64,000 bases of DNA from IMG/VR virus record IMGVR_UViG_3300045988_122854; one strand, given 5' to 3'. How positions within the stretch are numbered: the stretch's first letter is position 1; each line of letters opens with the position of its first letter. Made by a program: the position numbers and the translations under genes. Under the pieces are notes generated by a model. It saw only the letters and a list, made by a program, of their open reading frames with translations. It was not told the DNA's origin and did no database searches. Origin of the DNA: a virus. Below, one piece after another: positions 1-42,485 of the stretch.

Positions 1-20
1 CTCCAAAGTAAATGTTTTGG

Positions 21-102
21 CAAGAGGGCAGGGACTCGAACCCTGGTGGGTATTAACCGTCGGTTTTGGAGACCGATGCAATCGCCGCTATGCGACCCCC
101 TT
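21..102 (-). tRNA. tRNA with anticodon CCA (Trp-type by anticodon) and an unusually long 14-nt variable region; CCA tail encoded at 18-20
   Basis: Hand-folded cloverleaf on the minus strand. Acceptor AAGGGGG/CCCTCTT (one G-U pair). D-stem GCA/TGC with an 8-nt GG-containing D-loop. Anticodon stem TCGGT/ACCGA with loop CTCCAAA, giving anticodon CCA. T-arm CAGGG-TTCGAGT-CCCTG. Discriminator G. U8, A14 and A21 present. Confidence 0.7.
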
Positions 103-126
103 GTATAAAACAAGACCTTAACTTTG

Positions 127-196
127 TCCGGAAAATGGATTTGAACCATTAACTTAATCTTAAATGATTATGACCTAACCTTTAGTCTATTCTGGA
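127..196 (-). ncRNA. tRNA-like cloverleaf (possible pseudo-tRNA or aberrant tRNA) with a 6-nt anticodon loop and an A-C mismatch in the acceptor stem
   Basis: T-arm AATGG-TTCAAAT-CCATT is canonical. D-stem GACT/GGTC with loop AAAGGTTA. Acceptor TCCAGAA/TTCCGGA pairs 6 of 7. Anticodon stem TAATC/GATTA closes a loop ATTTAA of only 6 nt, so no anticodon can be assigned. Confidence 0.4.
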
Positions 197-220
197 AGTT
201 ATTTTGCTGTAAAGGTCTTT

Positions 221-270
221 CTTTATTTTATAAATATATTATATATTATTTTTTTAAAAATGTCAAAAAA
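221..270 (-). promoter_or_regulatory. Copy of the conserved AT-rich phage promoter (minus-strand TTGACA-N17-TATAAT) positioned to drive the tRNA / tRNA-like pair
   Basis: On the plus strand, tgtcaa lies at 261-266 and attata at 238-243 with a 17-nt spacer. Same 45-bp motif as the other copies (13716, 15205, 16860, 18985, 19340, 22120, 24185, 25800, 29150, 31695, 34660). Confidence 0.6.
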
Positions 271-273
271 TTT

Positions 274-1152
274 TTAAGCCAAACCAACATTAAGCAACTG
301 GCAAAAACCTTCTAATTGATATTCTGGCTTAAAGAAATATGGAGTAATAGATTTCGCGCAATGATCTGCGCAATTGCGCCCAGAAATCTTAAAATTATTA
401 TATCCTTTTGGTAAATAAGTATTTAAAATTTCATCCATATAAATCATATCTTTATTATCAATTTCAGGAAAAATCGCTCCATTATTTTTCATAGTGGTAC
501 AATTACGCTGAGATTCATCAATCTTTTTAAATAAACTAAAATTTGCGAAAACATTATAATGAGTATAAAGACGAGGACAATCAATAGGACAACTTTCATC
601 TGCCAGAATTTCAATTCTTCCTCTTTTATCTTCTGGAATAGAATCAAGAAGTTCCCAATTTCTATTATGACGACGCGGAAGAACGATACTTTCATAATCA
701 TCAAGTGCTTTTACAAAATCATAATCTTCTTTTGCTGCTATGATGCTTTTAGTCAATTTATAATTAGGAAACTTATCTCGAAGATAACGCTCAAGAATAG
801 GAGAATTAACAATAATTTCATTAATACCATTATCAAAAAGTTTTAACATTTCATTACAGTATCTATCATAAACATCAGTTTCCTCCAAAAGCGGATTAGT
901 TAGTGTAAAACGCAAGATAATATTATTCTTTTCATAAAAATCACGCATCGCACAGAGATAATCAATATTATGTTCTGGGCGTCCATCCATAAATCCGCCA
1001 CCATTCCAAATCATATTAGGAAGACAACCATATACATATTTTACCTTGGCTTCTGGATAAAAAGCTTCTGGAGCAATTTCTTGTAATTCAAAAAGTTTAT
1101 CATATACTTCAAGCCCGTAATAAAATTCAGGGCAATTAAAATTAATATCCAT
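274..1152 (-). CDS. Hypothetical protein, last gene of the RiPP-like operon
   Basis: Intact 292-aa ORF immediately downstream of the YcaO gene, same strand, 11-nt gap. No recognisable motif. Confidence 0.55.
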   Translation of the reverse strand: MDINFNCPEFYYGLEVYDKLFELQEIAPEAFYPEAKVKYVYGCLPNMIWNGGGFMDGRPEHNIDYLCAMRDFYEKNNIILRFTLTNPLLEETDVYDRYCNEMLKLFDNGINEIIVNSPILERYLRDKFPNYKLTKSIIAAKEDYDFVKALDDYESIVLPRRHNRNWELLDSIPEDKRGRIEILADESCPIDCPRLYTHYNVFANFSLFKKIDESQRNCTTMKNNGAIFPEIDNKDMIYMDEILNTYLPKGYNNFKISGRNCADHCAKSITPYFFKPEYQLEGFCQLLNVGLA

Positions 1153-1163
1153 ATAATCTCCTA

Positions 1164-2810
1164 TTAATAATTTTTAATCATTTCTTTAAAATCTTTACTT
1201 CTAAATATATCATACATAGGCTCTAAAATACATTTTTCTACTAAGTATTTTCTATCAGTAATATGTTTAAAATCTTCATCAGTAAAAATATAATCAAATT
1301 CTTTAAAAATTTTAATCATATCTTCTTTACTATATTTTCTACTATGAACGTATGCTAATAAAGTTAAATATTTTTTATAATAAGGATAAAAACAACTAAC
1401 TGAAATATCTAAAGAAAATTCTTGATTTTCTAACAAATATCCTGTAGCATCTACATAAAGATTTTTAACGAACATCTCATTGGGTGTTAATAATACATTC
1501 TTATTGTTATAAGCCACTAATTGATCTCCATGAGTAAGCAAGCCACAGAATCTATCTACAATTTTATCAAAAGTAATATTATAATAATCAAGACAATATT
1601 TAATTACATCATATACTTTATTCTTATTTTTAAGATAGTTCTTAATAGCTAAATGTTTATTTTTAGTTATAGAAATTGCCTCTCCTGTTTCTTTAACCTC
1701 TTGGCATCTATCAAAAAAAGATTTCCACAAGCCATCAAGATTATCTACATAAATACTAATGGCAGTGATACCATCAATTAAAGACATATCAGCACAATAA
1801 ATATCAGCTCCAATATTAGTAGCAATCTTTTTATTATGCTCTAAAATTTCGTCATTGGAATAACTTTTATCAGTATAAGATAAAAATACATCTTTATTAA
1901 CAGTATCTACAAATTTCTTATTTAAAAATAAACTCTCAGGAAAAGTATTGAGATTCGTAATACAAGAACCACCATCCATAACCATATCTTCTTTATTTAA
2001 AGAATAATATGGAGATATAACTGAAGTCTTTCTTGTATCAAAAGAAAAACAATTTTGATACATTTCAGTACAAACACGTTCAACAGCAATCTCAAAAACT
2101 GGAAAAGCACCAAAATTAATAGCTACAGTGCCACTATATTTATTAATTAAAATTGCTACCATAACAGGAACATTATAAGTTCTTGACATATCAATAATAT
2201 AAAAATTATTATTATGAGACTTAATCGCACTAATAATATTTTTTAATTTTTCATCTTTAATACTATCTATATCATAAAAATAAAAATCTTTATTATCAAT
2301 ATCAATATAAAAATTACTTAAAACATAATGCTCGAAAATTTCAGATAAGCCTTGATTTAAGGCTTCATTAAAAGTATTGCCTGCTGCCATTCCCGAACTA
2401 CCATGATAACGTTGAAGAAGACGAGGATCCATATATAAAGTTTTATTAATGTTAACTCCTTTAAATGGCACTCCAAAAAATTCATTATTATAAATAGTTT
2501 TAAAATAATCCTCTAATAAACCATTATCTTTTTTATTTAAACGATCAAAAAGTTTATATAAAAGAGTATCTTTTCCCCCAAGTGCTTCTTCATAACTTAA
2601 AGGCTTTTCATTTTTAAATAAAGAATAACCATAATTTTTTTTATTTGATTCAATTTTTTCTGCACAAAGAAAAGGATTACAAAGATAGTGCATTCCATTA
2701 CAAAAACGTTCATACATTTCCGCATAACCAGAAGCTCTAGCAAATTCTTTCGTAACACCTTTACCATAAGTCTTTAATACAAAATGTCCTTTATATTCAA
2801 GGCTTAGCAC
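1164..2810 (-). CDS. YcaO-domain protein (cyclodehydratase / amide-activating ATP-dependent enzyme family)
   Basis: N-terminal KTYGKGVTKEFARASGYAEMYERF matches the YcaO signature GKGxT...A.AS..E..ER. 548 aa, GTG start at 2810 with GGAG 4 nt upstream. The in-frame upstream stretch also looks coding, so the true start is uncertain. Confidence 0.7.
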   Translation of the reverse strand: MLSLEYKGHFVLKTYGKGVTKEFARASGYAEMYERFCNGMHYLCNPFLCAEKIESNKKNYGYSLFKNEKPLSYEEALGGKDTLLYKLFDRLNKKDNGLLEDYFKTIYNNEFFGVPFKGVNINKTLYMDPRLLQRYHGSSGMAAGNTFNEALNQGLSEIFEHYVLSNFYIDIDNKDFYFYDIDSIKDEKLKNIISAIKSHNNNFYIIDMSRTYNVPVMVAILINKYSGTVAINFGAFPVFEIAVERVCTEMYQNCFSFDTRKTSVISPYYSLNKEDMVMDGGSCITNLNTFPESLFLNKKFVDTVNKDVFLSYTDKSYSNDEILEHNKKIATNIGADIYCADMSLIDGITAISIYVDNLDGLWKSFFDRCQEVKETGEAISITKNKHLAIKNYLKNKNKVYDVIKYCLDYYNITFDKIVDRFCGLLTHGDQLVAYNNKNVLLTPNEMFVKNLYVDATGYLLENQEFSLDISVSCFYPYYKKYLTLLAYVHSRKYSKEDMIKIFKEFDYIFTDEDFKHITDRKYLVEKCILEPMYDIFRSKDFKEMIKNY

Positions 2811-3007
2811 AAGACTCCAAGTAGTTGATTGTTCTTGACGTAAAGCTTCCTCAACACAAGTAAATCCGCGTCCCTCTAAAAAGTTTTTAATATTATTAAC
2901 TGTATCAATAGGACTTATTTCTTTATAATGTTGACTATAATTATTCGTATAAACACACCCTTTTCATTTATCTTATAATTATAATACATTATTTTTTATC
3001 AAAAATC

Positions 3008-3041: not shown

Positions 3042-3584
3042 TTATTTATTTAATTTTAATAAATAATAACAATTAGGACATAAATATTTATTATCATTTG
3101 TTTTAAAAAATGGAATATTCTATCCATTAGATTTAGACTTTAAACCACACATTTCACATATTTTATTATCCTATTGTACTATTGGAATATTTACCGTAAT
3201 ATCAGGTTCAAAAATATTAGTAAGATTATTAAATATTTTTTCACTATAATTTAAAATCAAATTTTCATCATTCTAATAATCATACTAACAAATCTAATAA
3301 CTTATCCAAATACAATCTTTTAAATTAGATAGATCTATTTTCTCTATCGGTATAATTGTATTAAAGTTTATTTCATTAACTTCTTTAAAATTTATTTTTT
3401 CTTTTAAAATATACTATACCTAATAAATAATAAATCTGTCTTTCCTAATAATACCTAACTAAAAATAAATAAATAAAACCCAAAAATCATAAATACTATT
3501 CGGATCAAACCTTAATAGAAATTCTTTTAATAAAGTCCAAAAGTCAGACTCTACCTATCCAAAATGATGATCGGTAAATCTCAT
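3042..3584 (-). CDS. Hypothetical 180-aa protein with a C-terminal zinc-ribbon-like CxxC...CxxC; contains 9 in-frame TAG codons
   Basis: Frame checked codon by codon: ATG at 3582-84 overlaps the upstream stop as TAATG; TAA at 3042-44. In-frame plus-strand cta (minus TAG) at 3555, 3459, 3420, 3414, 3294, 3285, 3273, 3171, 3120. No TAA or TGA in between. Confidence 0.5.
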
Positions 3585-3784
3585 TAGCTTTCTCCTTTAT
3601 CAGATTTATTAAAACAAAAATGTAAATATTTATTTAAATCAGGAAGATTACCTAATTTTGGAGGTACATTAAATAAATAAGGTTTATCTCCTTTAGTAAA
3701 ATCTAAAAAATTATTTAGAAGAAAATAAACTTTTTCTTTATATTCTTGATAAGTTTCAATCATAAATACTTTCTCCTTTTCCAT
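3584..3784 (-). CDS. Small hypothetical protein (66 aa)
   Basis: ORF with ATG at 3782-84; overlaps the upstream gene's stop in an ATGATTGA arrangement. Confidence 0.4.
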   Translation of the reverse strand: MEKEKVFMIETYQEYKEKVYFLLNNFLDFTKGDKPYLFNVPPKLGNLPDLNKYLHFCFNKSDKGES

Positions 3785-5852
3785 CTAAATAATTTAAAAA
3801 CCATTCATAAGTAGGCACATAACACAATTCATTATTAAGATAATTTAATAATGAATAAATTTCATTTTTAATATCATCAAAATTAGTTATACATTCTCCT
3901 CTTAAAAGATTAAACTCAATTTTCTAATTTTTAATATCTTCTATAATCTGTTTATCTAAATTACATAAATTAGGAATATTATTAAAATCTTCTTTATTAT
4001 TAGATAAATTATACATAGTATATAATATATAATAAATTAAAAGAATAATCTTTTCTAAAAAATAATTATTTTCATATCCATAAAAAGAAGAATCTAAATC
4101 ACTTATTAATTTTATTTCATTAATAATTCTATAAAGATTTCGTCTTAAAGTACTTTGTTTGCGGTTTTCATCAATATTTTCCAATTTCAAAATATCAATA
4201 AAATTAGCAAAAAATACAATTATTTTATTAATATATCCTGTAATTACCATATTAGAATTAGAATGAGATAAACAATTAGGATTATCTTCTAACTAAGTTA
4301 TATAAAGACCTAAATTCTAATCTTCTAACTCATAAGATTCACCATAAATATCGCATCTATCTAAGAATATACTATCTTCTCCAAAGAAAAATTTTGAATA
4401 TTTTATATTATTCTTATTAAGAAAATCTCTTTTAAGAATTAAATTAATCTTTTCAACTGATTTATCAGCATTAACTATTTTAAATACCCCAAAATTTTCT
4501 TTGCTATATTTTATTGAATTATATAAAATTTCTAAAACATTATCATTTGAAAATAAATCATCAGAATCCCAAAATAACACATATTTATTAAAAGAATATT
4601 CTAGTCCTAAATTGCGAGTTAGACCAGGCCCTTTTCGTTTTAAATTCTTAAAAAAGAAACAAGGAAAATTTGCTTCATCAAATACTTCAATAAGTTTTTT
4701 ATCATAGAAAGAATGGTCACTAATAAAATATACACAACAATCTTTTATAATTGTTTGGGTAGATAAATTATTATACAAATTAATAATTTGCTAATCATTC
4801 ATATTATAATAAGGTATTATAATATCCATTTTTCCATCAATAAAACGAGTAAAACATTTTTTTAAATAATAAGTATTATATCTAAATTCAATTGGGCATC
4901 TATTTTCTTTAAATAGCTAATAATTTTCTAAAAAATTTTCTTTATCATTAACTAATTTTAAATAAAAATCATAATCTCTAAAATAAGCATCTTCCATTGG
5001 AACTATAAATTCTGATTTTGTATCATAATATTTGTGCCAAATCCAAGAAGCTTCAGACATAGTCCCATCGCAATATCTACAAATATTTTTAGGTTTAAAA
5101 ATGAAATTATGTAAATCATCTAAACTATTTATATCCTCTAACTGCAAATAATCGCTTTCGTCTTCTGGGATATTTACATTATATTTCTTTCTATAAATAT
5201 CCAAGTGTGCAGAAAATGGACATATATAAATTTTATAATTTTTTAAAGTAAAACAAGGTAACTAATGCGGACATTTATGAAAATATACTTCATTTATATC
5301 AGTAGTTCCTGCTTCATTTACAAGCTATTGTCGCATAAATAATCTTGAATTATGATTAAAACCTAAACCATGACTGTCTAGATACTCTATCGCTTTATGA
5401 TCGGTATATTTTCCATAAGTAGTAACATCAAATATTACTCCCATATCTTTATATTCTTTCTCATGTTTAAAAGCATCTTGTAAATGACACCCATTGCTTA
5501 ATATTTTAATTTCCACCTTATCTTTTGGGAAAACTTCTCTAGCAATCTAACATATTTCAAATAATTTTGGATGTAAAGTAGGTTCTCCACCTAAAATCAT
5601 AAAAAGTTTTATATTTGGAATTTTTTTATAAGCAAAAGTAATCTGATTGCGGAAATCATCTAAATCAATATACCAAGGTTCTGCTAAAGGGGAAAAATGA
5701 TTACATCCTGCGCAGTTAAGATTACAATGATCTACAATATGCATTTCTAAACTAACCCCATCATAGACCGATTTCCATACTGGATTAGTATAAGGAGGAA
5801 TCCCTTGATAATTTTTAGTTCTATCTATTTCCATATTTATTCTCCAAAACAT
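3756..5852 (-). CDS. Radical-SAM (N-terminal) / family-2 glycosyltransferase (C-terminal) fusion, or two translationally fused genes, read through at least 8 in-frame TAG codons
   Basis: N-terminus has CNLNCAGC (CxxxCxxC) and GGEP. From about 4836 downward: MDIIIPYYN ... KGPGLTRNLG ... FWDSDD (GT-A fold, DxD motif). One continuous frame from ATG 5850-52 to TGA 3756-58. The only internal stops are TAG at 5547, 5325, 5262, 4917, 4791, 4317, 4293, 3924. Confidence 0.6.
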
Positions 5853-6396
5853 TTATAATATTTCTATTATAATTAACTAGTTCTTTTATTTGGTTATCTC
5901 TTTCCTACAAAAAACATCCCGTGCAAATTTCATTTATATCATTTAAATCACTATGAAAAAATTCACAACGATGTATTTTTCTATTTAACTATTCACAATT
6001 TTTATCACACTTTAAAATCTATTCTTCTTTATCGTAAATAATTGGATGTTCTTCTTCAAATCGTAAAGTTAAATATAATTTAAATTCTAATTGTCCCTAA
6101 CTTGAATATAACATTGTTCTATAAAAAATAGATTTTACTGTAGATTCAAATGTAAATTTTTGTTTTTGACTAAAAATTAACTCAATAATTTTTATATCTT
6201 TATATTCTAAATCTTTTAATTGACTATATAGATAATTTAATGAAGAATATTCTATATCATTTGAATTATTTACAATTTTGCAAAAAGTAATTTCTTTTGG
6301 AAAATTTAATCCAAAAACAATATCATTACATTCACGCTCGTCAAACTTTACTGTTCTTAGTAAAGTTTGACGAGCATTATATAAATTAATTAACAT
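5813..6396 (-). CDS. Cys-rich hypothetical protein (about 194 aa) with one in-frame TAG
   Basis: ORF 6097..6396 continues through TAG at 6097-99 into a CDKNCE...HRCEFFH...CTGCF segment. TAA at 5813. Overlaps the radical-SAM gene start by about 40 nt in another frame. Confidence 0.4.
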
Positions 6397-6704
6397 TAAT
6401 GATTACGCCAATAGCCAGGAATTTTATATCCTAAAAAATGACGATAAATTAAATAATCTTCACTCATATTAGGACCTTCGTCTTCATTACAATTATCACA
6501 ATCGCAATTATCATTATCATTAATGCTAGAATTAACAATTTTTTTAATTAAATTATCAATAAGAGAATTAACTTCTTCATTTTCTCCATTATTTTCAATC
6601 CAATTTAAATAAATTACATATAATAAATCTTTATAATCTCCAACATTAGAAAGATCAAAAGTATCATCTAAATGCTGAATTTGTTTTTTCATTTCTTCAA
6701 TCAT
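6396..6704 (-). CDS. Small acidic hypothetical protein (102 aa)
   Basis: ORF; TAATG overlap with the next gene; ATGATTGA overlap with the upstream radical-SAM gene. Confidence 0.5.
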   Translation of the reverse strand: MIEEMKKQIQHLDDTFDLSNVGDYKDLLYVIYLNWIENNGENEEVNSLIDNLIKKIVNSSINDNDNCDCDNCNEDEGPNMSEDYLIYRHFLGYKIPGYWRNH

Positions 6705-18981: not shown

Positions 18982-19050
18982 TACAAATAACCTCTTTTCT
19001 TATTTTCTATATATATTATATATTATTTTTTTAAAAATGTCAAAAAGATC

Positions 19051-27505: not shown

Positions 27506-28435
27506 TTAACAAATTCTAAAAGTTGTTGTATCCAATTTCAAATCATTAATTGATAATTTATCTAAATGAAAATATGGGATTCTAATTAACGGGATGTTAT
27601 TTTCTTTACACCATTGATTTTTAAAAGCATCATGTTCTTTTGTTTTTTCAAACTTTTCTAATGTATTCCAACCAGTTCCAGATTGATAATGCTATATTCC
27701 ATCAAATTCAATTAAATAAGAATTATCAATATAAAAATCAAATTTAGCTTTATGGTTAGTATCCTAAAATTTACAATTTTCAAAAGTTTTTTCACAAATA
27801 TACTAAATATTATGTTCTTTTAATAAAGAGATAATTTTTTCCTAACCTGCTGATTGTAAACAACCACAAGATTTACTTTGTCCTTTTCTTAAAGTAGTTC
27901 CTGATACAATTTTTTGATTGCCACAAGAGCATTGGCATAACCACATAGCAGTATTATGCTAATTAGATCCACTACGTTTTAACACTGTCCATCGACCAAA
28001 AGTTTGTCCTGTTAAATCAATTGTTGTAAGTTCACCGATCTTTTTATGAATATAACAACCACATGAAATAACGGCGCCACTTACTAAACCATCTTTACGA
28101 ATACTTTTAATAGTTCCACAATCACACTAACATTTCCAATAAGTATGCCCTTTTCCTTCTGTTCTATCATATCCTAAAACTGTTAGCATACCGAATTTTT
28201 TGCCTGTTAAATCTTTTAACAATTTTAAACGTTTCTAACATCCGCATGAAGTGGTATGATTTGAAGTTAAATGAGACGCAGAAACTACTGTTTTATTACC
28301 ACATTCACATTGGCATAACCAATATGGTCCGTTCCTTGGGTCTTCAACTCGATATAAAACTGTTAATTTTCCAAAATGCTAATTAGTCAAATCTTTTGCT
28401 CGGCCTACTGGAATCTATTTATAAATTTTTTCCAT
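27506..28435 (-). CDS. Three zinc-finger repeats plus a C-terminal DUF559/Vsr-like PD-(D/E)xK endonuclease domain; 9 in-frame TAG (homing-endonuclease-like)
   Basis: ATG 28433-35 with AAGGAG upstream; TAA at 27506-08. Three repeats of LTVL...YW.CQC.CG...SCGC. C-terminus KFDFYIDNSYLIEFDGI[TAG]HY resembles the DUF559 FDF...IE.DGxQH motif. No minus-strand ORF of 60 aa or more is called here, because TAG occurs every 60 codons or fewer. Confidence 0.5.
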
Positions 28436-30020
28436 AAAATCACTCCTTTTCTATTATATGTATAAATAGAAAAGGATAAAATAATAAAATTTGTCCGAAA
28501 TCGCCAACCTGATTATTCAACCGGCCTCCTTAAAATGTGTAAGCATTAAATTTATACATATAAAACTCGCCATCCATAAGAAGAAGTCTATCAGCTTCTT
28601 TTCGATGATCAATCATCCACCAGCCAGGCTTAGGAAGAGGGAGATCGAAGTATTCGATTCGTTGCGTTTCCATAATATCTTCTTCAATTGCGCCTTGAAG
28701 GAAAGCGAGGTAAAGTTCTTGCGCTTCTGCTTCCGAAATGTTGGCGAAGGTCCAAGACTTACTGGTCATTTCATCTTCGATTTTATAACAAGTAATTTCT
28801 TTCATAAGTCCTCCTTACATTTCAACCGCATCAACGAAATCAATGAAAACATCATCGGCGACGTTATTCATCATATTAAGATAAGAAGAGAATCTCTTAG
28901 TCCAATCGCCGGTCATCTCGCCGTGGTAGTGATACCAATCATAATCGGAATCTTTCTGAATTGCTTCAAACTGATGTTCCATAAGGCTATCATCGACCAT
29001 ATCTCGACAATACTCCATAAACATTTCCTGCATATCGGCTTCGGACGCATTCAGGAAATAGAAATTATGGTCTCCGGCCGTATCACAAAGAATACCAATG
29101 GAATGAATTTTAATATTAGAATTAGAAGTAGTCATAATTTTTATTTCCTTTCTTTACTTTATATATATATTATATATTATTTTTTATAAAAAATCAAAAA
29201 AGGATTTGCGGTTTGCGCAAATCCTTTTAAAGATTAGAGAACGGGAGCATAATTATAATAAATAATCATATCTTCCAATGCATCTTTGTAAAGTCTTGTA
29301 TCAAATTTATGACAGTGGAATCGTTTCTCGACATTCTCTTCGATTGCGGACATAGCGATTTCGAGAGCGTCAGATTCACTTACGTTTGTAGCACAGTAAA
29401 TCTCATCATAAGGCGCGTCATAAACGAATACGACAGGCATATGCTTCATATATTATTCCTCCATTAATTGATTTTACCCAAAATTTTTGTTATAATATAT
29501 TTAGAAATTAAAAGATTTCAATCGCGTTTTCAAAAAGATTGAGGAATTCATCAGCCACTTCGGAAGTTGCGAGAAGGCTTGTAGAAGAACCGCCATACCA
29601 ATCAATATGAATGCGCGTGAGTGGACTACCGCCCGCCTCCGCAATCTCATCCGCATACTGTTCAGAGTCAACCGCGGAAAAGCTAACGCTATTGATGTTG
29701 TTAGTATTGATAAGATACTTAATACCGCGGAAGTTGCGTAAAATTACAGTCATATAAATGCCTCGTCAGATACAAAATTTTTGAATTGCTTTATAACTGC
29801 GGTGCCATAGGGATCACCATCGGAAAAAGTGTATTCATAATGAGATTTATCTCTCATATAGATTTCAAGGTCTATTCCAGGAGTCTCGGTAGAGATATCA
29901 TCATCATCTGAGTTATCCATAGTGATGCGATTAGCCACGATCGAGATAATTTCGTTTATGTTAAGAAAAACGAAGTCGCCGTTAGACATTTTTAAATAAA
30001 TTAATTCACCTTTGTTCATT

Positions 30021-34276: not shown

Positions 34277-34654
34277 TCACTTATTGATGAAAGTATTCAA
34301 AAAATCGGCAATTACATCATCATCGGTTTTCTTGACCTTCTTAACCTTTACCGGCTCACTCTTGGGGAAAAGCACGTCAAGAAGATCGTTAACCCCGGTC
34401 ATAAGACCGTAAACCTCAGCAAAGATATTCTCCACATCAGATGCGGTCAATGCGGAATCCTTGTAGCCATTAAGAGCAGCATACTCGTTAATCCGATCGG
34501 CGATTTCCTGCGCGAGCGCAGTCTTCCGATCGGCCTGCTTGGATTCCTTCTCCACCTGCTTAACCGCAGCATTCAGAGACTTAGCCATCTCGTCCGCAAT
34601 AGTCTGAGCGTCCTCACCATTCTTCAAACGAGCAATAATATCATTCATATCCAT
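34277..34654 (-). CDS. Hypothetical protein (125 aa)
   Basis: ORF behind a promoter-motif copy at 34660-34725. Confidence 0.45.
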   Translation of the reverse strand: MDMNDIIARLKNGEDAQTIADEMAKSLNAAVKQVEKESKQADRKTALAQEIADRINEYAALNGYKDSALTASDVENIFAEVYGLMTGVNDLLDVLFPKSEPVKVKKVKKTDDDVIADFLNTFINK

Positions 34655-35170
34655 ATGAATACCTCTTTTCTTATTTTCTATATATATTATATACTATTTT
34701 TTTAAAAATGTCAAGATTTTTTTGGATGAAAACATACGTGTGAAACAATGTAAGGACGAAGCAATTTTTAATTAATTATAAAGGCATATGATCCTACGCG
34801 GGCTTAAAAAAGTCTTTTTTTACTATTATAACATATTTTTTATAAAAAGTCAATTTTCGGGATTTTTTTGGGCCATATGAGAGGGTGCTAGAAGTATGAA
34901 AAATTTTGCATATGGGTATACCGATCGGAAACTCGGCCCGCGACGTTCCACCGCGGGCCGGCCAAATAGACTGAGTATTCCGGGATTTTAGTCTGAGTCT
35001 ATTTTAAACACTTTTTTCGCGCGAAATTTGCTAAACCTATAATTATTCCGAAATTCCGCCCGGAGCGTCAGTGATCGGGCGGTCCATTATACCACATTTT
35101 CCGATCGGTGTCAATAGGCAAAACGCACAAAAAAATCAGCAGGTTTTTAGTCAACCTGCTGATTGAATAT

Positions 35171-35587
35171 TTATGCAAGAAATGCGTTTACAATTTCATC
35201 GAAAACCGTGGGGTTAATGTCCACGTTAAAAAAGCGGTCGTTCTTGCGGAACGCTTTGGGGTATCGTCTAATCAGTTCCGCACGCAATGCGCTTTCCGCG
35301 CCCTCGGCGGGATAATCGCCACAAGAACGGATTCGATGAACTTCCACGCGCGTGATAGAATACTTTTTCGCGTATTCGCCGATTTCATCACGCAAGCGCC
35401 CTACAACGTCTTTTGCGGAAGTGCCTACCTTGTTAAATTCAAGTTCATTGTTGTTGTAAAACTTGAAAAAGTAGACCGCTTGAACGTCTTTCAGATTCTC
35501 GCCACAATTAGGCATAAACTCCATTGAAACAGGCGGTCTACCGTCCTTAAATCGGCGTAGCTTAATAGTAATTTCTTCCATTGACAC
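35171..35587 (-). CDS. Hypothetical protein, possible T5orf172 / GIY-YIG-like domain
   Basis: VYFFKFYNNNELEFNKVGTS...VVGRLRDE pattern; weak. Confidence 0.35.
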   Translation of the reverse strand: MSMEEITIKLRRFKDGRPPVSMEFMPNCGENLKDVQAVYFFKFYNNNELEFNKVGTSAKDVVGRLRDEIGEYAKKYSITRVEVHRIRSCGDYPAEGAESALRAELIRRYPKAFRKNDRFFNVDINPTVFDEIVNAFLA

Positions 35588-36211
35588 AAAATCCTCCCTA
35601 TTGATTGAGGTTTACCATCGTTCTCTCAACCATTATTTTTTGCACTTTTTGACTTGTTTTTGGGTGAAAAACCGCATTTTTCAGCGGTTTTTCACCCTTT
35701 TTCATCAGTTTTTGGGCTTTCGCTTCTGAATCAGGGTCAATTCGTAGTCATTTTCGCCCACATGGAACGCAATCATGCGCTCCACATTCGTAATTTCTAC
35801 GTTTTCGCACGCATTTTCGCTGTTTTCTCGCAAAAAAGTTGCAAGTTCAGCGATAATCGAGCGTTTTGTGGGGTTTTCCTTGCGCTGTCGCTTCTCAAAT
35901 TTATAAGCGGTCGGCGCTTTGCGTGTTCCGGTTTTAGAATACTTGTTAGCTTCTTTGAGCTTTTCCGCAGACAGGTCAAAGTCTTTGGCGATTCCATGGT
36001 CAATGTCATCATCGTCCATGAGAATTTCTTTTGCTTCCTCGGCAGTACAATCTAACTTTTTCATCAGATTGTCAATCTTTGCCTGAAAGTCCTTTTCACT
36101 CATTTTAGGCATTTTCTTTGCCCCCTTTCAAGTATGATTATAACACCGCCGTTAGCAAATGTCAAGAGAAATTTTTGGGAGCGCCTGATTTTTTTCAGGC
36201 GCTCCCCTGAA

Positions 36212-36589
36212 TCAGTGGGCGAGACGGAAGTAGGACTTGCGCTTGTCCACAATCTTCTCGACGCCGTTCGCTTCAATCATCTGACGCAGAAGAGCGGAAA
36301 CGCGCTGATTGGTGAGGTCGCCCAGACCGTCCACATTCTTGATGAGTTCGGTCACAGTGTAGAGCTTGTCAGGATTCGCGGACAGCTCGGCAAAGATAAT
36401 GTCCTTGTAGCCGTCGTTCGCAATCTGATTCGCGGTCGGCTTCTTATCACCGGCGTTCTTGCGAGCCAACAGGTCAATCTCGTGATTGATAAACTCAACC
36501 ATGGCGGGGTCAGCCTGAACCTCGCTCATTTTGAGCAGAGCCTCGAAACGGTCGCGCTTGGTGAGCTTCTTAACAGTAGAAGTAGACAT
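36212..36589 (-). CDS. Paralog-family protein (125 aa), copy 2
   Basis: About 70% identical to 38831..39211 over its full length. Confidence 0.55.
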   Translation of the reverse strand: MSTSTVKKLTKRDRFEALLKMSEVQADPAMVEFINHEIDLLARKNAGDKKPTANQIANDGYKDIIFAELSANPDKLYTVTELIKNVDGLGDLTNQRVSALLRQMIEANGVEKIVDKRKSYFRLAH

Positions 36590-36599
36590 AGTATCAATT

Positions 36600-37160
36600 C
36601 CTTTCTTTGCGGTAGGTCGCTACCCTTTTGATATATTGAGTATACTACATTTTAGAGTGCTTGTCAAGAGGTTTCGCAAACTTTTTACACGAATTACTAC
36701 CCCGACCTGACGGATAATTTATTGTTTGTTGGTTCAATCTATCTGTCAGCGAAAATCGCTTCGAGTATAGTTGGCTCAATCAAACTCACTTTCGCGTTCA
36801 ACGTTTGGCTTTACAACGTGGTGTATTATGTTTACTTCCTGTACTTTCTCAAGGTCGCGCGCCCTCGGATTTCTTGGGCTACTCCCTCTTGACATTTTCT
36901 ATTGTAGCACACTCGCTGGGATTTGTCAAGAGGTTTTCAAGAAAAAACTCATGAATTTTTTCTTTTATCCCGTGCGTTCCGCTCCGAAGAGACCTTAACG
37001 TAATAGGTGAACGGTCTATTGCTACTTCCAACCGTAGCCCCACACCGACCTGTGGCTCAGGGGTTTCCCTCTTGACATTATTCATTATAGCAGATTCCAC
37101 ATAGATTACAATTGACAAAATAACCAAATTACGGGAAAAAATTTTCTTCACTTTTGTGCA
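36600..37160 (-). promoter_or_regulatory. 560-bp non-coding leader with at least 3 tandem minus-strand promoters (TTGACA...TGcTATACT/TACAAT) and GC-rich structured segments
   Basis: No credible ORF (the 172-aa call 36879..37397 has implausible composition). Repeated ccctcttgacatt...tatagca blocks at 36880, 37060, 37170. Confidence 0.45.
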
Positions 37161-37313
37161 ACTTTTCTCTTGACAAAATTGGCGGGGTGTGGTATAATGG
37201 TGAATTCGGCCCGCTTTGGGCGTTAGCGGGCCGACCATTTTAACACAAAAATCCGCGTTTGTCAATAGGTAAAATAGACAAAAAAAACTGCCCATTTTTG
37301 GGCAGTTTTTCAT
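37070..37313. repeat. Face-to-face promoter / GC-hairpin module, copy A
   Basis: Plus TTGACA 37170-75 and TATAAT 37193-98. Hairpin cggcccgc...gcgggccg at 37207-33. Minus -10 (plus atttta 37237-42) and -35 (plus tgtcaa 37260-65), each with a 17-nt spacer. Terminator ctgccca-ttttt-gggcag at 37283-37311. Confidence 0.55.
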
Positions 37314-37314
37314 T

Positions 37315-37560
37315 TTAGTCCAGCAGGTTAATTTCTCCTGGAATTCTGAAAGAATCAGCGTCCAGTGTGGAATTGTAGTCCTCGGTAAAGAGTTCAATCA
37401 TTCCACATTCCATGACGTAATTCTGAACCGACCGCCGAACATTGTTCCAGAGGTCAGTCTTTCGGCTTTCCGCTCGGGCTTCCTTGGCTTCCTTTGCCTG
37501 AGCGATGAGTTCGTCCAGTTCTTCGTCAGTCATGTAATTAAAATCCAAATCCATTTTCAA
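37315..37560 (-). CDS. Small acidic hypothetical protein
   Basis: Intact ORF. Confidence 0.45.
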   Translation of the reverse strand: MKMDLDFNYMTDEELDELIAQAKEAKEARAESRKTDLWNNVRRSVQNYVMECGMIELFTEDYNSTLDADSFRIPGEINLLD

Positions 37561-37862
37561 AACTCCCCCTTAATGGCTTCTTTCCACGCGTCCCAGCCGA
37601 ACTTTCCCTCACTATCCAGCTTTTTGCCGATGCCTTTTGCGGTCAGTAGGTCAAGCTCGTCCGCGATTTCCTCTTCAAAGTTTACCCAAGAGTCGTAGGT
37701 CTGAATAATGACAATTTCGTCGGCTTCAAAGACGCCACCGCACTCGGCACAGATAACATAGTCATGGTCGATTAAAATGCCCATGTGAGGGTCATTGTCA
37801 TCAGGGACTACAAAAAGGACTTGTTTAGCGTTCATGTGAAACACCTCTTTCATTTGATACAT
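37557..37862 (-). CDS. Hypothetical protein (101 aa)
   Basis: ORF with 4-nt overlap to the next gene. Confidence 0.45.
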   Translation of the reverse strand: MYQMKEVFHMNAKQVLFVVPDDNDPHMGILIDHDYVICAECGGVFEADEIVIIQTYDSWVNFEEEIADELDLLTAKGIGKKLDSEGKFGWDAWKEAIKGEF

Positions 37863-37912
37863 TGATTATACCATAGGGAATAGGACTTGTCAAGCCCTAT
37901 TCCCTATTTTTT

Positions 37913-38689
37913 TTAGCCCATGTTTACAACGGGATTTTCCTTAATGTTTCGCATGAGCGCGCGCTGAAACTCGGTCGGCTTGGGGCGTTCCACCGTGGGA
38001 GTTTTGAAAAGGGACTTTTCCATAGTCTTGTGCTGTCGAACGCAATAGCGCAAAATCTCAACTTCAATGAGAACGTCTTCAAGTCCCGTATGCGATTCAT
38101 CAAAAGTGTCTTCGCCGCTGATAAAGCGATAGAGAATTTCTGCGGTAAAGCGGAGTTGTCCGTTCTTGGTCTTATAGCCGTTCTTTTCGCAATAGTCGCG
38201 ATAAGTAGGCATTTTGCCGATGACCTGTCGCGCCATTTTCAACGTGTCCCATATTTCAAGGTCGTAGGGGAAAAAATAGCGATACTTGCTTTTCGTGTCC
38301 CATCTTTGCGCGTTGTTGCAAGCGTTAAGGTCGAACCGCATATTGTGAGCGCACACAAAAGAACAGTTATAACGCTCGACGCAATCACAAAATGCCTTGC
38401 GGATTTCGTAAAGGTCAGCCATCACGCGCGAACCGTTCTTAATGTCCTCAACATAGCGGGGAATCTTGTCGGCGTAGTATGCGGACTGCATGAGGTCGCG
38501 CTCGTAGCAGAAAATATCTCGATTCACAAAGGAATAAGTTTCATAAACATTGCCCTTGGAATCAATAACCGCCCAGCCGAAGTCATAGGGAAGAACATTT
38601 GACATATCCAGCTTATCGCCGTCCTGAATGGTGTTCGCAGTTTCCGTGTCAAGCATAATACCGTAGTTTTTGCGCCTATCAATACCCAT
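37913..38689 (-). CDS. DEDDh 3'-5' exonuclease (DnaQ/epsilon-like)
   Basis: Exo I MLDTETA, Exo II VCAHNMRFDLNA, Exo III SHTGLEDVLI. Confidence 0.75.
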   Translation of the reverse strand: MGIDRRKNYGIMLDTETANTIQDGDKLDMSNVLPYDFGWAVIDSKGNVYETYSFVNRDIFCYERDLMQSAYYADKIPRYVEDIKNGSRVMADLYEIRKAFCDCVERYNCSFVCAHNMRFDLNACNNAQRWDTKSKYRYFFPYDLEIWDTLKMARQVIGKMPTYRDYCEKNGYKTKNGQLRFTAEILYRFISGEDTFDESHTGLEDVLIEVEILRYCVRQHKTMEKSLFKTPTVERPKPTEFQRALMRNIKENPVVNMG

Positions 38690-38830
38690 CTTATCGTCTC
38701 CTATTGGAAAAGTAGATTGAGGTTTACCATCGTTCTCTCAACCTCTGATAATAGTATAGCACTTTGCTATTGGTTTGTCAAGAGTTTTTTAATAGGGCAG
38801 GGGATTTTTTTATCCCCTGCCCTTTTCCCT

Positions 38831-39211
38831 TTACGCGAGGGAGAAGTAGGACTTGCGCTTGTCAACCGTCTTGACAACGGTGTTCGCGTCAATCATCTGA
38901 CGCAGAAGAGCGGAAACGCGCTGGTTAGAATACTCCGCAAGCTCGGGAACACCCTTGATGAGGTCGGTCACGGTATACAGCTTGTCAGGGTTGGCGGTCA
39001 TTTCGTCCAGAATGACCTGCTTCACAGCGTCATTCTCCATCTGCTTGGCCGTGGGCTTCTTATCACCCGCGTTCTTCTTGGCGAGCAGTTCAATCTCGTG
39101 CTCGATGAACGCCACCATGTCAGGATTCGCCTGAACCTCGCTCATTTTGAGCAGAGCCTCGAAACGGTCGCGCTTAGTGAGCTTCTTAGTCGTAGTAGTA
39201 GAAGTAGCCAT
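38831..39211 (-). CDS. Paralog-family protein (126 aa), copy 3
   Basis: See 36212..36589. Confidence 0.55.
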   Translation of the reverse strand: MATSTTTTKKLTKRDRFEALLKMSEVQANPDMVAFIEHEIELLAKKNAGDKKPTAKQMENDAVKQVILDEMTANPDKLYTVTDLIKGVPELAEYSNQRVSALLRQMIDANTVVKTVDKRKSYFSLA

Positions 39212-39229
39212 AGTATCAATTCCTTTCCG

Positions 39230-39620
39230 GTTTTTAAGACTGTCCTTGTCTTTGATGTAGTTATTATATCATAGGCGGAGCAGGCTGTCAATAGTTTTTG
39301 TAGATTTTTTTTAGGGGCGGTCGCGAGGTTTATTACTATACATCTTGTTTATACCTACCTTTATCTATAATCATAAACCAATTCATTTTACTAAACCAAA
39401 TCAATCTTTAAGGCGGTGGGCGAGCATCAGAAATCATCTTGTTTACCTCTTTTATTTGATGTATTCATTATACCCTACGTTGAGCGGTTTGTCAAGGGGT
39501 TTTTCAAACTTTTTTGAAAGTTTGTTCGGCACGCCACGCTTGGAACATTCCGTCGGATTTTGGTATAATGGCCAAGGGAACTGCCTTTCCGCAGGTCTTA
39601 CTCTTTCCTCCTGACATTAT
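39230..39620 (-). promoter_or_regulatory. 390-bp non-coding leader with tandem promoters, two mini-ORFs (10 and 9 aa) and a GC-rich structured segment
   Basis: Minus strand: TTGACA-N17-TATAAT at about 39250-39285; ext-10 TGCTATACT at about 39600; aggtaaacaagATG...taa (MISDARPPP) and aggtataaacaagATG...taa (MYSNKPRDRP). Confidence 0.4.
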
Positions 39621-39852
39621 GTAGTATAGCAGATTGGTATTGATTTGTCTATTGGCAAAATAACCAAATAACGGGAAAAAATAAAATTGAAATTTGTGCA
39701 AAATTTCTCTTGACAAAAATGCTGGCGGGGTGTATAATGGTAAATTCCGGCCGCGACATGCGTTGGCGGCCGGCCATTATATCACATTTAGATGGTTTTG
39801 TCAATAGTCAAATTAAACAAAAAAATCTCCCCAAAATTGGGGAGATTTTCAT
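39620..39852. repeat. Face-to-face promoter / GC-hairpin module, copy B
   Basis: Plus TTGACA 39710-15 and TATAAT 39733-38. Hairpin ccggccgc...gcggccgg at 39747-74. Minus TATAAT (plus attata) and TTGACA (plus tgtcaa 39799-804). Terminator at 39820-39850. Confidence 0.55.
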
Positions 39853-40128
39853 TTGAAATTAGTCAATGATACTAACTTCGGTCTTGACAGGCGTTACCAT
39901 CTTTTCGCGCGGGAACTCGCGAATCTGACCCGTTTCGAGGTTGACCGCATAGCAAAACTGCCAACCTCTTGATTTGAGGAACGGGGCTTTGTTGTTCCCA
40001 TCAATTTTAAGATACATACCCATTCCGCCCTCGCTTCTCAGTGTGGTGAACGTGCCACCGCACAGGATATTCATAATTTGGAGCTGACCCTTATCGCCAA
40101 AATTTACTTTCATTTTTTACTTCCCCTT

Positions 40129-40443
40129 TCAAAATTCTTCTAAGAAATGAATCGGTTTGTGATTTGGTCTGAAAAATGCCATTCCCTCATTGTAAAGAGA
40201 ATTAAACAAAAATTCGGGCACTTCAAACCATTCCGTACCACTAATGCGAATACCTAACTCATTTAAAGTCTGATGACAAGCATTTTCCATGTCTCGACTG
40301 CCCGCACAAGTGCTACGCATTATTGCTTTTGGATTGTGGCTATAATAGCTTTTGCGACGCTTTGAGAGGTTTTTAGTGCCATCGGAATAGCCAACTTTTA
40401 CTAAATGGCTATTGGCTAAATTATCCATCATCAAATACAGCAT
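40129..40443 (-). CDS. Hypothetical protein (104 aa)
   Basis: Intact ORF. Confidence 0.45.
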   Translation of the reverse strand: MLYLMMDNLANSHLVKVGYSDGTKNLSKRRKSYYSHNPKAIMRSTCAGSRDMENACHQTLNELGIRISGTEWFEVPEFLFNSLYNEGMAFFRPNHKPIHFLEEF

Positions 40444-40599
40444 TTTTACCTCACAGCAGATGGGTATTAACCCATTCTGCGGTCACAAGTCCAATTTCCT
40501 TAGAGACAACCGTTTCATAACGGTAATTACCACCGGCAGTTCGTCCGGTCACTTTGGCGAGAACGCCAAGGGTAAGCCAAAAATAAGGCATCATTTTTA

Positions 40600-40806
40600 T
40601 CACCCCTTTGAACCGACCGTAAAGAGCGAACGCAGAAGCAACAGAACAATCCAAATTGCGAGTGCCAGCTTCCACGAGAACACGATGACGAAAGTGCCGA
40701 TTGCGGTGATGCCGAGGGCGGGAAGAAGCCAGCAGAGAAGCCAGACAAAACCAGAGGTAAGCAGGAACGAAATTGCGAGAGACAACAGAATCAAAAGAAC
40801 AAACAT
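40600..40806 (-). CDS. 68-aa membrane peptide (two transmembrane helices); a 47-aa ORF (40451..40594) follows
   Basis: Hydrophobic sequence MFVLLILLSLAISFLLTSGFVWLLCWLLPALGITAIGTFVIVF... Confidence 0.35.
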   Translation of the reverse strand: MFVLLILLSLAISFLLTSGFVWLLCWLLPALGITAIGTFVIVFSWKLALAIWIVLLLLRSLFTVGSKG

Positions 40807-40861
40807 TTTATTTTCCCCTTTTCATTTGATGTATTTATTATACCATTGGAGTAGGGCTTTG

Positions 40862-42218: not shown

Positions 42219-42239
42219 TGTTTGTATCCCCTTTCCTTT

Positions 42240-42485
42240 ACGGTAATCATAGTATAGCAGATTATTACATTCTTGTCTATTGGTAAAATGCCCAAATTCG
42301 GGAAAATAATTAGTTGGACTTTTGGCTAAATTTCCTATTGACAAATTGCTGGGATGGTGGTATAATGGAATTTCCGGCCGTGGCAGGCGCAAACGGCCGG
42401 CCATTTTATCACACTATTGGATTTTTGTCAATAGGCAAAATAAATAAAATTTTGAGACGAGATTTGGTTATCTCGTCTCAAAATA
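42240..42485. repeat. Face-to-face promoter / GC-hairpin module, copy C
   Basis: Plus TTGACA 42338-43 and TATAAT 42361-66. Hairpin ccggccg...cggccgg at 42375-42401. Minus -35 (plus tgtcaa 42426-31). Terminator at 42452-84. Confidence 0.55.

Follow-up and report, generated by a model that had tools for sequence, protein, structure and literature searches.

A probable tryptophan tRNA with a class II-like extra arm and a tRNA-shaped neighbor in the tRNA array of a TAG-recoded phage

We analyzed the tRNA genes of IMG/VR virus record IMGVR_UViG_3300045988_122854, a 64,000-nucleotide (nt) stretch of viral DNA referred to here as the window. At its left edge, ARAGORN and Rfam both place two tRNA elements on the minus strand: a tRNA-like gene with a 6-nt anticodon loop and, downstream of it, a tRNA-Trp(CCA) gene with a long variable (V) region (Table 1). 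They follow a sigma-70 promoter that matches the consensus at 12 of 12 positions. The same 29-mer recurs unchanged at 19043..19015(-) and with one change at 34714..34686(-), which bears out the original prediction that both elements stand behind a repeated phage promoter. Promoters of the consensus type are abundant in the window as a whole (39 observed vs. 1.2 expected). At those two other promoter copies, the leader holds the Shine-Dalgarno sequence AAAGAGGT and an ATG; the leader of the tRNA operon has GACC in place of the GAGG of that Shine-Dalgarno sequence. The cassette that runs from promoter to trailer is present in 16 contigs (the window, seven from IMG/VR, and eight from metagenomes), and the promoter is kept in all 16, with occasional single substitutions only.

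The tRNA-Trp gene reads AAGGGGG-UC-GCAU-AGCGGCGA-UUGC-A-UCGGU-CUCCAAA-ACCGA-CGGUUAAUACCCAC-CAGGG-UUCGAGU-CCCUG-CCCUCUU-G-CCA. ARAGORN calls it as tRNA-Trp(cca) at 18..102(-), and the Rfam tRNA profile RF00005 scores 21..102(-) at 49.4 bits (E = 1.5e-7 over the whole window), against a gathering score of 29. Its V region, CGGUUAAUACCCAC, lies between the anticodon and T stems (59..46), is exactly 14 nt long, and folds at minimum energy into a 3-base pair (bp) GGU/ACC helix with a UAAU loop. All 9 nt that the gene has in excess of an ordinary tRNA-Trp with the same anticodon arm fall within this region. The anticodon CCA occupies 69..67 in the loop CUCCAAA. The D stem consists of three Watson-Crick pairs and a U13-U22 mismatch, with C11-G24; a 3-bp D stem, in which 13:22 is not a Watson-Crick pair, is a class II feature. 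The gene thus combines the 3-bp D stem with a helix-forming V region of at least 10 nt that has been maintained in evolution, and it lacks the 4- to 5-nt variable loop of the type-I shape. Its acceptor and T stems are 7 and 5 bp, not the 8/4, 9/3, 8/5, or 9/4 of allo-tRNA and selenocysteine (Sec) tRNA geometries. ARAGORN, Rfam, and the fold all agree with the earlier description of a class II body (82 nt before CCA, with a 14-nt V region) that carries a Trp anticodon.

We find that this long-arm tRNA-Trp belongs to a widespread phage family. IMG/VR was scanned for the Trp anticodon arm followed by a T loop after 15 to 30 nt (the usual spacing is 10), and at least 120 viral loci matched; since such scans required an exact anticodon arm and T loop, their counts are lower bounds and biased toward that arm. 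In 120 of those loci, ARAGORN called 123 tRNA-Trp(CCA) genes, 117 of them at least 80 nt long. The long-arm genes comprise 86 distinct sequences from soil, marine, freshwater, and gut samples, and their V regions span 10 to 22 nt. In an alignment of 14 diverse homologs with a 14-nt V region, all three pairs of the V helix are 100% paired, with double-sided changes in 8, 7, and 4 of the 14 sequences. The cloverleaf of this alignment is 96.4% paired, compared with 68% in shuffles, and sliding the partner columns abolishes the signal. Position 13:22 is unpaired in 12 of the 14. The covarying V helix and the 3-bp D stem thus indicate that the extra arm is a maintained helix on a class II-shaped body.

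Long-arm tRNA-Trp is nevertheless a minority type among phages: none of 10 Trp genes had a long arm in 120 unrelated phage loci obtained as by-catch. Phage arrays that do carry a long-arm Trp gene often also carry long-arm His, Lys, Cys, or Asn genes. In bacterial and archaeal genomes (596 Gb), the pattern matched only 56 times, and many of these matches are dense tRNA arrays on short, phage-derived-looking contigs of metagenome-assembled genomes (MAGs); one, a near relative of the window gene, lies in an Erysipelotrichia MAG. These numbers do not support an origin of the long-arm gene as a copy of a host tRNA. A blastn comparison of 50,697 annotated phage records with the first 6 kb and with each tRNA revealed no close relative, and the sole match of the tRNA-Trp was a weak one (73%) to a Curtobacterium phage tRNA-Trp. 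According to textbooks and reviews, only Leu, Ser, bacterial Tyr, and Sec tRNAs have long variable arms (PMC7609411, PMC9976931). Our literature search, whose coverage excluded subscription titles, returned no description of a class II-shaped phage tRNA-Trp, and we provisionally regard it as undescribed.

The acceptor stem agrees with the anticodon. Bacterial tryptophanyl-tRNA synthetase (TrpRS) recognizes the first pair, G73, and the CCA anticodon, and G5-C68 makes a minor contribution (PMC9976931). All of these are found in the window gene, whose acceptor runs A1-U72, A2-U71, G3-C70, G4-U69, G5-C68, with G73. For seryl-tRNA synthetase (SerRS), extra-arm size is the main determinant, G73 and acceptor pairs contribute, and the anticodon plays no part (PMC9976931). 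G73 is common to tRNA-Ser and the window gene, which lacks the G1-C72, G2-C71, and A3-U70 of tRNA-Ser. It also lacks the A73 of tRNA-Leu and tRNA-Tyr; in Escherichia coli, G73 of tRNA-Ser blocks the leucyl- and tyrosyl-tRNA synthetases (PMC9976931).

The same marks recur throughout the family. Among the 86 distinct long-arm Trp sequences, 77 have G73 (some of the non-G discriminators counted here and below come from parsing of ARAGORN output that was off by one base in a few genes), and the 1:72 pair is A-U in 42 and G-U in 28 (70 of 86). Short-arm Trp genes (n = 23; V regions of 4 to 6 nt) have G73 without exception and A-U or G-U at 1:72 in 18. Phage tRNA-Ser genes (n = 88) have G73 in 74, G1-C72 in 81, G2-C71 in 81, and A3-U70 in 70, with V stems of 4 to 7 bp and V regions mostly of 15 to 24 nt. 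A73 is found in 64 of 68 tRNA-Leu and 38 of 47 tRNA-Tyr genes. The window V arm (3 bp, 14 nt) compares in size with the Tyr arms, and almost every Ser arm of the same phage data is longer. Where the terminase has UGG codons, standard-code homologs show W or aromatic residues. Given the Trp acceptor marks, the Tyr-sized arm, and this alignment, Trp identity is the best-supported reading and most likely the true identity of the tRNA at 18..102. Separately, bacterial contigs L273, L282, L290, L291, and L299 hold single-copy tRNAs that have a Leu-type body (A73, a GGCGGAAUUGGCAGAC-type D arm, and a long V arm) and a CCA (Trp) anticodon. These occur in Dehalococcoidia, Bryobacterales, Hyphomonadaceae, and Edaphobacter genomes. 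Unlike the window tRNA-Trp, they are candidates for a true mismatch between identity and anticodon.

What occupies the slot behind the tRNA-like gene differs among the 16 contigs. The long-arm Trp gene is found there in the window, L002, L003, and L326, in identical copies. A type-I tRNA-Trp of 73 to 75 nt takes the same slot in six others (L235, L246, L309, L314, L315, and L321), and an HNH endonuclease gene without any tRNA in five (L181, L223, L313, L317, and L324). The slot of L171 holds an aberrant Trp-like gene, uncalled by ARAGORN, about 90 nt downstream of the tRNA-like gene. This Trp-like gene has the acceptor AUCAGGG/CCCUGGU, G73, a CCA end, and the CUCCAAA loop; about 26 nt, a 5-bp hairpin among them, separate its acceptor stem from its anticodon stem. 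Directly behind the long-arm Trp gene, L002 and L003 carry a gene for a GIY-YIG endonuclease, and the endonuclease genes at the slot contain in-frame TAG codons. Judging from these gene contents, the Trp slot probably turns over through homing endonucleases. No genomic argument for a Trp tRNA function of the long-arm gene is stronger than the usual content of this slot, a Trp(CCA) gene of either the type-I or the long-arm form.

The tRNA-like gene reads UCCAGAA-UA-GACU-AAAGGUUA-GGUC-A-UAAUC-AUUUAA-GAUUA-AGUU-AAUGG-UUCAAAU-CCAUU-UUCCGGA-C. ARAGORN reports it as "tRNA-???" with a 2-base anticodon, that is, a 6-nt loop, at 126..196(-). RF00005 scores it at 42.7 bits (E = 5e-8 in a 320-nt region with lax filters), and a default scan of the whole window missed it. 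Its anticodon arm has a 5-bp stem and the loop AUUUAA (165..160). The 7-bp acceptor begins with U1-A72 and contains an A4-C mismatch (193/130); the discriminator is C, and no CCA is encoded. The D arm (GACU/GGUC) and the 4-nt V loop resemble those of phage tRNA-Glu genes, and the T arm is AAUGG-UUCAAAU-CCAUU. Among the annotated phage records, only insignificant matches to tRNA-Glu and tRNA-Lys were obtained. The earlier description of a tRNA-like neighbor with a 6-nt loop and an A-C acceptor mismatch is thus upheld by ARAGORN, Rfam, and the fold; its coordinates, 127..196, need correction to 126..196 once the discriminator is included, and the strand of both elements is the minus strand.

Across the cassette-bearing contigs, the tRNA-like gene is always the first of the operon, and its loop always has 6 nt. 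The 164-nt cassette is 100% identical to that of the window in L002 and L326, where the gene next to it is 99.3% identical (L326 is OJAW01000062.1). In L171, the cassette is 99.4% identical, against 80.1% for the adjacent protein gene. Only six positions of the tRNA-like gene vary in the 16 contigs: three in the anticodon loop, one in the D loop, A72G (which keeps a U-G pair), and the discriminator. The loop is thus the main variable site, reading AUUUAA in most contigs, CUUCAA in L223 and L313, and CUCUAA in L315. In the fold of 236..100(-), leader and trailer pair and lengthen the acceptor stem of the tRNA-like RNA (z = -2.6), and the pairing segments are kept in L315, the most divergent copy.

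The 6-nt loop, which replaces the 7-nt loop with U33 and a purine at 37 of a standard elongator, means that this RNA cannot be a standard decoder. We conclude that it is a constrained tRNA-shaped RNA that is predicted to be expressed. Two registers of the loop fit equally well. With nucleotide 38 missing, the variants carry all three stop anticodons (UUA, UCA, and CUA); with U33 missing, they carry UUU, UUC, and UCU (Lys, Glu, and Arg). The idea that the loop tracks the recoded stop codon was rejected on finding the UCA-like variant in a TAG-recoded phage. Replacement of a missing canonical tRNA was likewise rejected for Glu, as Glu(UUC) and Glu(CUC) are both present in the phage with CUUCAA. 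Homologous tRNA-like genes also occur in a second, unrelated group of phages (L055:3320-3393, L072:9976-10050, L106:6574-6648, and L125:5645-5717), where the loops differ in sequence as well as in length: CAUUAA (6 nt), CGUAGA (6 nt), and CUAGGUAA (8 nt). Loops of other than 7 nt may be a recurrent feature of phage tRNA arrays. Within the literature covered by our search (subscription titles lay outside it), no 6-nt-loop tRNA-like RNA or decoder was found described.

Table 1. Features of the tRNA cassette, genes upstream of it, and the separate suppressor gene of related contigs
Feature	Coordinates	Strand	Basis or remarks
Sigma-70 promoter	266..238	-	-35 TTGACA 266..261, 17-nt spacer, -10 TATAAT 243..238
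Transcribed leader (~40 nt)	237..197	-	AAGACCU (219..213) and UAACU (201..197) pair with trailer
tRNA-like gene, 71 nt	196..126	-	ARAGORN, Rfam, minimum-energy cloverleaf fold
Trailer/spacer, 23 nt	125..103	-	AGUUA and AGGUCUU (118..112) pair with leader
tRNA-Trp(CCA), 82 nt plus encoded CCA (20..18), 85 nt in all	102..18	-	ARAGORN, Rfam, fold
Weak peptidase-U32-like open reading frame	274-1173	-	Directly upstream of tRNA cassette
YcaO cyclodehydratase homolog	1164-2963	-	Upstream of tRNA cassette
Radical-SAM and glycosyltransferase-2 fusion	3756-5852	-	Upstream of tRNA cassette; eight in-frame TAG codons
tRNA(CUA), 90 nt, in related contigs	L393:1688-1777(+), L343:7965-8054(+), L350:9078-9167(-), L358:3369-3458(-), L398:2988-3077(-)		

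In this phage, TAG is a sense codon. Long open reading frames (ORFs) at 3042-6402(-), 27506-28453(-), and 54118-60690(+) are restored only with TAG read as sense, a requirement shared by the window and all five relatives analyzed. The in-frame stops of the long ORFs are TAG only; TGA and TAA terminate genes, and TAA is the main true stop. Recoding of TGA was rejected on these grounds as the cause of the odd Trp tRNA. In the terminase, TAG aligns with an invariant Q at both conserved positions (FYQRVFLR and HFxDQSIKLKK), and TAG is most likely read as Gln. The nearest terminases are those of large Firmicutes phages and of the TAG-to-Gln gut phage phAss-1 (PMC10607447). The phage itself is AT-rich, 120 to 200 kb in size, and probably Firmicutes-infecting.

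In the largest survey, suppressor tRNAs could be identified for just 40% of TAG-recoded phages, and the authors suspected that non-canonical ones exist (Borges et al.). The window tRNA-Trp, with its CCA anticodon, is not an amber suppressor (CUA). The same anticodon arm with CUA is present in 84 viral contigs, including those of L003, L171, L223, L235, and L246. In the family, it belongs to a separate 90-nt tRNA(CUA) gene flanked by tRNA-Val and tRNA-Tyr, at the distal end of the array (Table 1), a finding in line with the original prediction that neither element of the window is the CUA suppressor. The array of L398 has 17 genes, from Asn to Tyr, on one strand. The L003 contig carries the suppressor together with an identical copy of the window's tRNA pair, which suggests that the window's phage almost certainly carries a suppressor, predicted to lie 9 to 12 kb beyond coordinate 1. 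As the suppressor sits at the far end of the array in relatives, its absence here is an effect of the window edge.

Suppressors of the family share the anticodon arm GGUCU-NNN-AAAACC with the Trp tRNAs. In contig 3300045988_132576, a 73-nt type-I tRNA(CUA) (L465:2480-2552(-)) fills the Val-Tyr suppressor slot, and thus long- and short-arm versions alternate at the suppressor slot too. Its D arm, GCAUAGCGGCAAAUGC, is a near match to that of the window tRNA-Trp, GCAUAGCGGCGAUUGC, and 31 of the first 43 nt are identical by hand count. The shared anticodon arm and the near-matching D arm indicate that the suppressor and Trp tRNA lineages are probably related.

Other array genes also vary. The array tRNA-Leu(UAG) is 77 nt long and type-I-shaped in L171:3073-3149, L181:4299-4375, and L398:11336-11412, and 85 nt long and class II in L002:1952-2036 and L003:8156-8240, the reverse of the Trp case. 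The fullest single locus has 17 genes, and about 20 are seen across overlapping loci. In the recovered stretches of the arrays of L002, L171, L181, L327, L328, L398, and L465, there is no canonical tRNA-Lys and no tRNA-Gln, tRNA-Gly, or tRNA-Cys. The absence of tRNA-Lys contrasts with the AT-rich genome, in which AAA is expected to be very common.

We put a probability of about 0.68 on the following joint reading of the locus. The segment 266..18(-) would be the promoter-proximal head of an operon, with about 20 more tRNA genes past the left edge and the suppressor last; 18..102 would be a working Trp tRNA whose extra arm is under selection; and 126..196 would be a mimic or an unconventional tRNA. 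The operon would be transcribed from the consensus promoter as a polycistron, from which host RNase P and 3' nucleases would cut the tRNA-Trp. Host TrpRS would then charge it through G73, A1-U72, G5-C68, and the CCA anticodon, and the charged tRNA would read UGG. The extra arm would be a selected structural feature of a widespread class II-shaped phage Trp lineage. Speculatively, it could serve as a handle, or as a shield that tells phage from host tRNA for tRNA-targeting nucleases or a phage factor. Several Mycobacterium tuberculosis VapC toxins cleave tRNA-Trp. For other isoacceptors, escape of phage tRNAs from tRNA-cleaving defenses is documented (PMC10264068, PMC11555353, PMC13096335). The tRNA-like RNA would be a specialized mimic or unconventional tRNA, with its variable loop as the working part.

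Several observations weigh against this reading. The identical cassette copies come from few samples, and many of the relatives belong to a single IMG dataset (3300045988); recent spread, and not selection, may thus account for some of the 100% conservation of the cassette. Fold energies of both the tRNA-Trp and the tRNA-like gene are unremarkable relative to shuffles (z = -0.6 to -1.2). Non-significant shuffle z-scores are common for tRNAs, and fold energy was dropped as uninformative evidence for either gene. Bacillus subtilis TrpRS prefers G2-C71 and G4-C69 (PMC9976931), from which A2-U71 and G4-U69 of the window acceptor deviate, so that charging efficiency is uncertain. G73 and an extra arm are also features read by SerRS. 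Last, the function assigned to the arm is wholly inferred, and the arm could be neutral, tolerated, and persisting by descent.

Even so, the window gene is most likely a working Trp tRNA, as judged from its sequence and relatives, and neither a mis-inserter nor a decayed suppressor. The original prediction had suggested that a class II scaffold with a non-cognate anticodon might insert Ser or Leu. In its most specific form, SerRS would charge the tRNA and serine would be placed at UGG, as would suit a Ser identity that rests mainly on extra-arm size and G73, independent of the anticodon (PMC9976931). The 3-bp D stem with C11-G24 is class II-like, and beyond the long-arm Trp genes the nearest bodies in the tRNA set are indeed tRNA-Ser. 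However, the acceptor begins with A1-U72 and A2-U71, where 92% of phage tRNA-Ser have G1-C72 and G2-C71, and the V arm, with 3 bp and 14 nt, falls below the 4 to 7 bp and the mostly 15 to 24 nt of Ser arms. The long-arm family moreover keeps the Trp-type 1:72 pair and G73 together with CCA, an ordinary tRNA-Trp fills the same slot in relatives, and UGG aligns with conserved W. These points count against mis-insertion of either amino acid, and we consider serine insertion very improbable. The second suggestion, a recent or decayed suppressor, would make the gene a relic or precursor, one change at position 35 away from CUA and not maintained for UGG. Suppressors and Trp tRNAs of the family do have the arm GGUCU-CUA-AAAACC in common apart from the anticodon, and the D arm of the L465 tRNA(CUA) adds to the likeness. 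An E. coli precedent is su+7, a tRNA-Trp with CUA that inserts Gln. Yet CCA is invariant in the four contigs that carry the gene, and a CUA scan of viral contigs returned, in the family contigs, the separate 90-nt gene and no CUA copy of the long-arm Trp gene. The 1:72 pair is the Trp-type A-U, whereas suppressors have U-A, U-G, or U-U and A-C mismatches, and a dedicated tRNA(CUA) already stands at the other end of the array. What survives of this idea is the probable kinship of the two lineages; a relic or precursor proper seems to us highly improbable. A further possibility is that the gene is a neutral oddity or a pseudogene, its 9 extra nt merely tolerated or the whole an inactive cargo of the neighboring GIY-YIG endonuclease. 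The slot is dispensable, as some relatives have no Trp gene there, L171 holds an aberrant one, and the by-catch Trp genes have no long arm. Against this stand the V helix, kept by compensatory changes across highly diverged phages and accompanied by the class II-type D stem, the intact canonical tRNA features and encoded CCA, and the Trp identity marks conserved in the 86 distinct sequences. We judge inactivity or neutrality to be unlikely.

For the tRNA-like RNA, we prefer, at low confidence, a mimic or decoy acting through its loop. An unconventional reader of stop codons, with U33 at loop position 2 and A37 at position 6, would accord with the invariant U at position 2 and A at positions 5 and 6 of AUUUAA, CUUCAA, and CUCUAA. 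The U1-A72 pair, the Glu/Gln-like D arm, the 4-nt V loop, the first place in the operon behind a consensus promoter, and the non-canonical suppressors suspected from the 40% detection rate of Borges et al. would all be in keeping with such a reader. But the same genomes have a regular tRNA(CUA), the commonest variant (UUA) would read TAA, the main true stop, and the UCA variant occurs in phages that use TAG and not TGA as sense. Both other variants are single transitions from UUA and possibly due to chance, the register without U33 fits equally, and no 6-nt-loop decoder was found in the literature. A stop-codon reader is thus quite unlikely. That the RNA does not decode at all, and is either a mimic or decoy, produced early and abundantly, with a Lys-, Glu-, or Arg-like loop or a mere 5' processing signal of the operon, is a doubtful but more serious possibility. 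Taking one U from the canonical loops CUUUUAA (Lys), CUUUCAA (Glu), and CUUCUAA (Arg-UCU) gives its loops, exactly so for Glu and Arg and with A for C at the first base in the Lys-like loop of the window. The body is constrained and the loop variable. There is no CCA, the acceptor mismatch is conserved, and leader and trailer extend the acceptor stem. The phage with CUUCAA keeps its canonical Glu tRNAs, which argues against a replacement decoder. Its target could be a nuclease of the host that attacks tRNAs, a modification enzyme, or a sensor of tRNAs such as a T-box, and both tRNA-cleaving defenses and countermeasures by phage tRNAs are on record (PMC10264068, PMC11555353, PMC13096335). Weighing against it, a mimic is suggested by shape only, and the leader-trailer stem has no covarying changes across the contigs.

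The V arms of the suppressors differ from that of the window tRNA-Trp, which is a plain hairpin without anticodon mimicry. In the family, tRNA(CUA) has a U1-U72 mismatch, G73, and a long V arm whose 7-nt loop, CUUUGAA, equals the anticodon loop of Gln(UUG). Among 53 distinct long-arm tRNA(CUA) genes in IMG/VR (L329-L408), 42 have a 7-nt V-arm segment of the form YUYUGNN, most often CUCUGAA. These segments are closed by at least two pairs (42 of 42 and 42 of 42), of which the second covaries (GC 16, CG 20, UA 5, and UG 1). A stricter Gln-like loop motif is found in 35 of the 53 but hardly ever in V arms of other tRNAs (Ser, 0 of 117; Leu, 1 of 107; Tyr, 0 of 55; long-arm Trp(CCA), 1 of 117). 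Similarly, tRNA(UCA) genes with a Trp-type acceptor (A1-U72, G73) have CUCCAAA or GUCCAAA as the V-arm loop (13 of 32; they include L460, L419, L420, L448, L425, L442, and L446), and at least some of the remaining matches are ordinary selC or selC-like bodies. The L460 gene has a five-arm fold, in which the V arm (ACGGU-CUCCAAA-ACCGU) reproduces an entire Trp anticodon arm. The suppressor V arm may therefore be a mimic of an anticodon arm that preserves recognition (Gln identity) by synthetases that read the anticodon; our literature search found no description of such arms in phage suppressors. More broadly, these genes may form a five-armed phage tRNA class with the V arm as a functional module. 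The window Trp(CCA) would be a member or derivative whose arm serves recognition or defense evasion, and the tRNA-like RNA a non-decoding mimic acting via its variable loop. We advance this wider view tentatively and think it improbable as a whole. If true, amber suppressor V arms, in this family and in many unrelated phages, copy the Gln anticodon loop (YU-CUG/UUG-AR), and opal ones the Trp anticodon arm, so that anticodon-reading synthetases may still recognize a tRNA whose own anticodon has changed.

A functional link of the cassette to the YcaO and radical-SAM genes upstream (Table 1) was considered and dropped, as the upstream context varies among cassette-bearing contigs. Elsewhere in the window, the region 34600-49500 has a higher G+C fraction (0.41-0.45), no ORF of more than about 150 amino acids, and about 30 TTGACA-17-TATAAT promoters that are perfect or nearly so, most of them on the minus strand, at intervals of roughly 100 to 1,500 bp. 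Behind several of them come a ribosome-binding site and ORFs of 42 to 126 amino acids. The region resembles a dense series of short and probably early genes, each with its own promoter.

With type-I tRNA-Trp, the window gene shares the CUCCAAA loop, G73, A1-U72, G5-C68, 7/5 stems, the GGUUCGA T loop, and the encoded CCA; it differs in its 14-nt, 3-bp V arm in place of 4 to 5 unpaired nt and in its unpaired 13:22. With class II tRNAs (Leu, Ser, bacterial Tyr, and Sec), it shares the paired extra arm, nearest to Tyr in length, and the 3-bp D stem. It departs from them in its Trp anticodon and acceptor, in G73 as against the A73 of Leu and Tyr, and in lacking the 8/5 shape of Sec. Class II shapes with anticodons of class-I-type amino acids are known from the nev-tRNAs of nematodes, V-arm tRNAs with Gly or Ile anticodons that are charged with Leu (PMC3333845), and from bacterial allo-tRNAs with 8/4 or 9/3 acceptor/T stems (PMC5389517). 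Their bodies keep Leu or Ser identity, whereas the acceptor identity of the window gene agrees with its anticodon and its stems are 7/5, so that it is neither a nev- nor an allo-tRNA. The TAG-to-Gln crAss-like phages and phAss-1, with their tRNA-Sup(CTA) (PMC10607447; bioRxiv 10.1101/2021.08.26.457843), are TAG-recoded gut phages with large tRNA arrays as well. Phage amber suppressors differ from the window gene, with its CCA and plain V hairpin, in the Gln-like 7-nt loop of their V arms. Interspersed GIY-YIG and HNH genes and presence/absence polymorphism of single tRNAs are shared with T4-type clusters and their homing endonucleases (SegB; PMC13096335). In the window's family, homing is putative, and the endonuclease genes have in-frame TAG codons.

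Here, we describe a predicted tRNA-Trp in which a Trp acceptor identity that matches the anticodon is set on a class II body. This combination, found in more than 100 phage contigs, breaks the rule on long arms. It affects annotation, namely isotype calls, pseudogene flags, and the detection of suppressors in recoded phages. It also makes one ask how TrpRS copes with, or makes use of, an extra arm. The finding bears on the contest over tRNAs into which tRNA-cleaving defense systems bring phages and their hosts.

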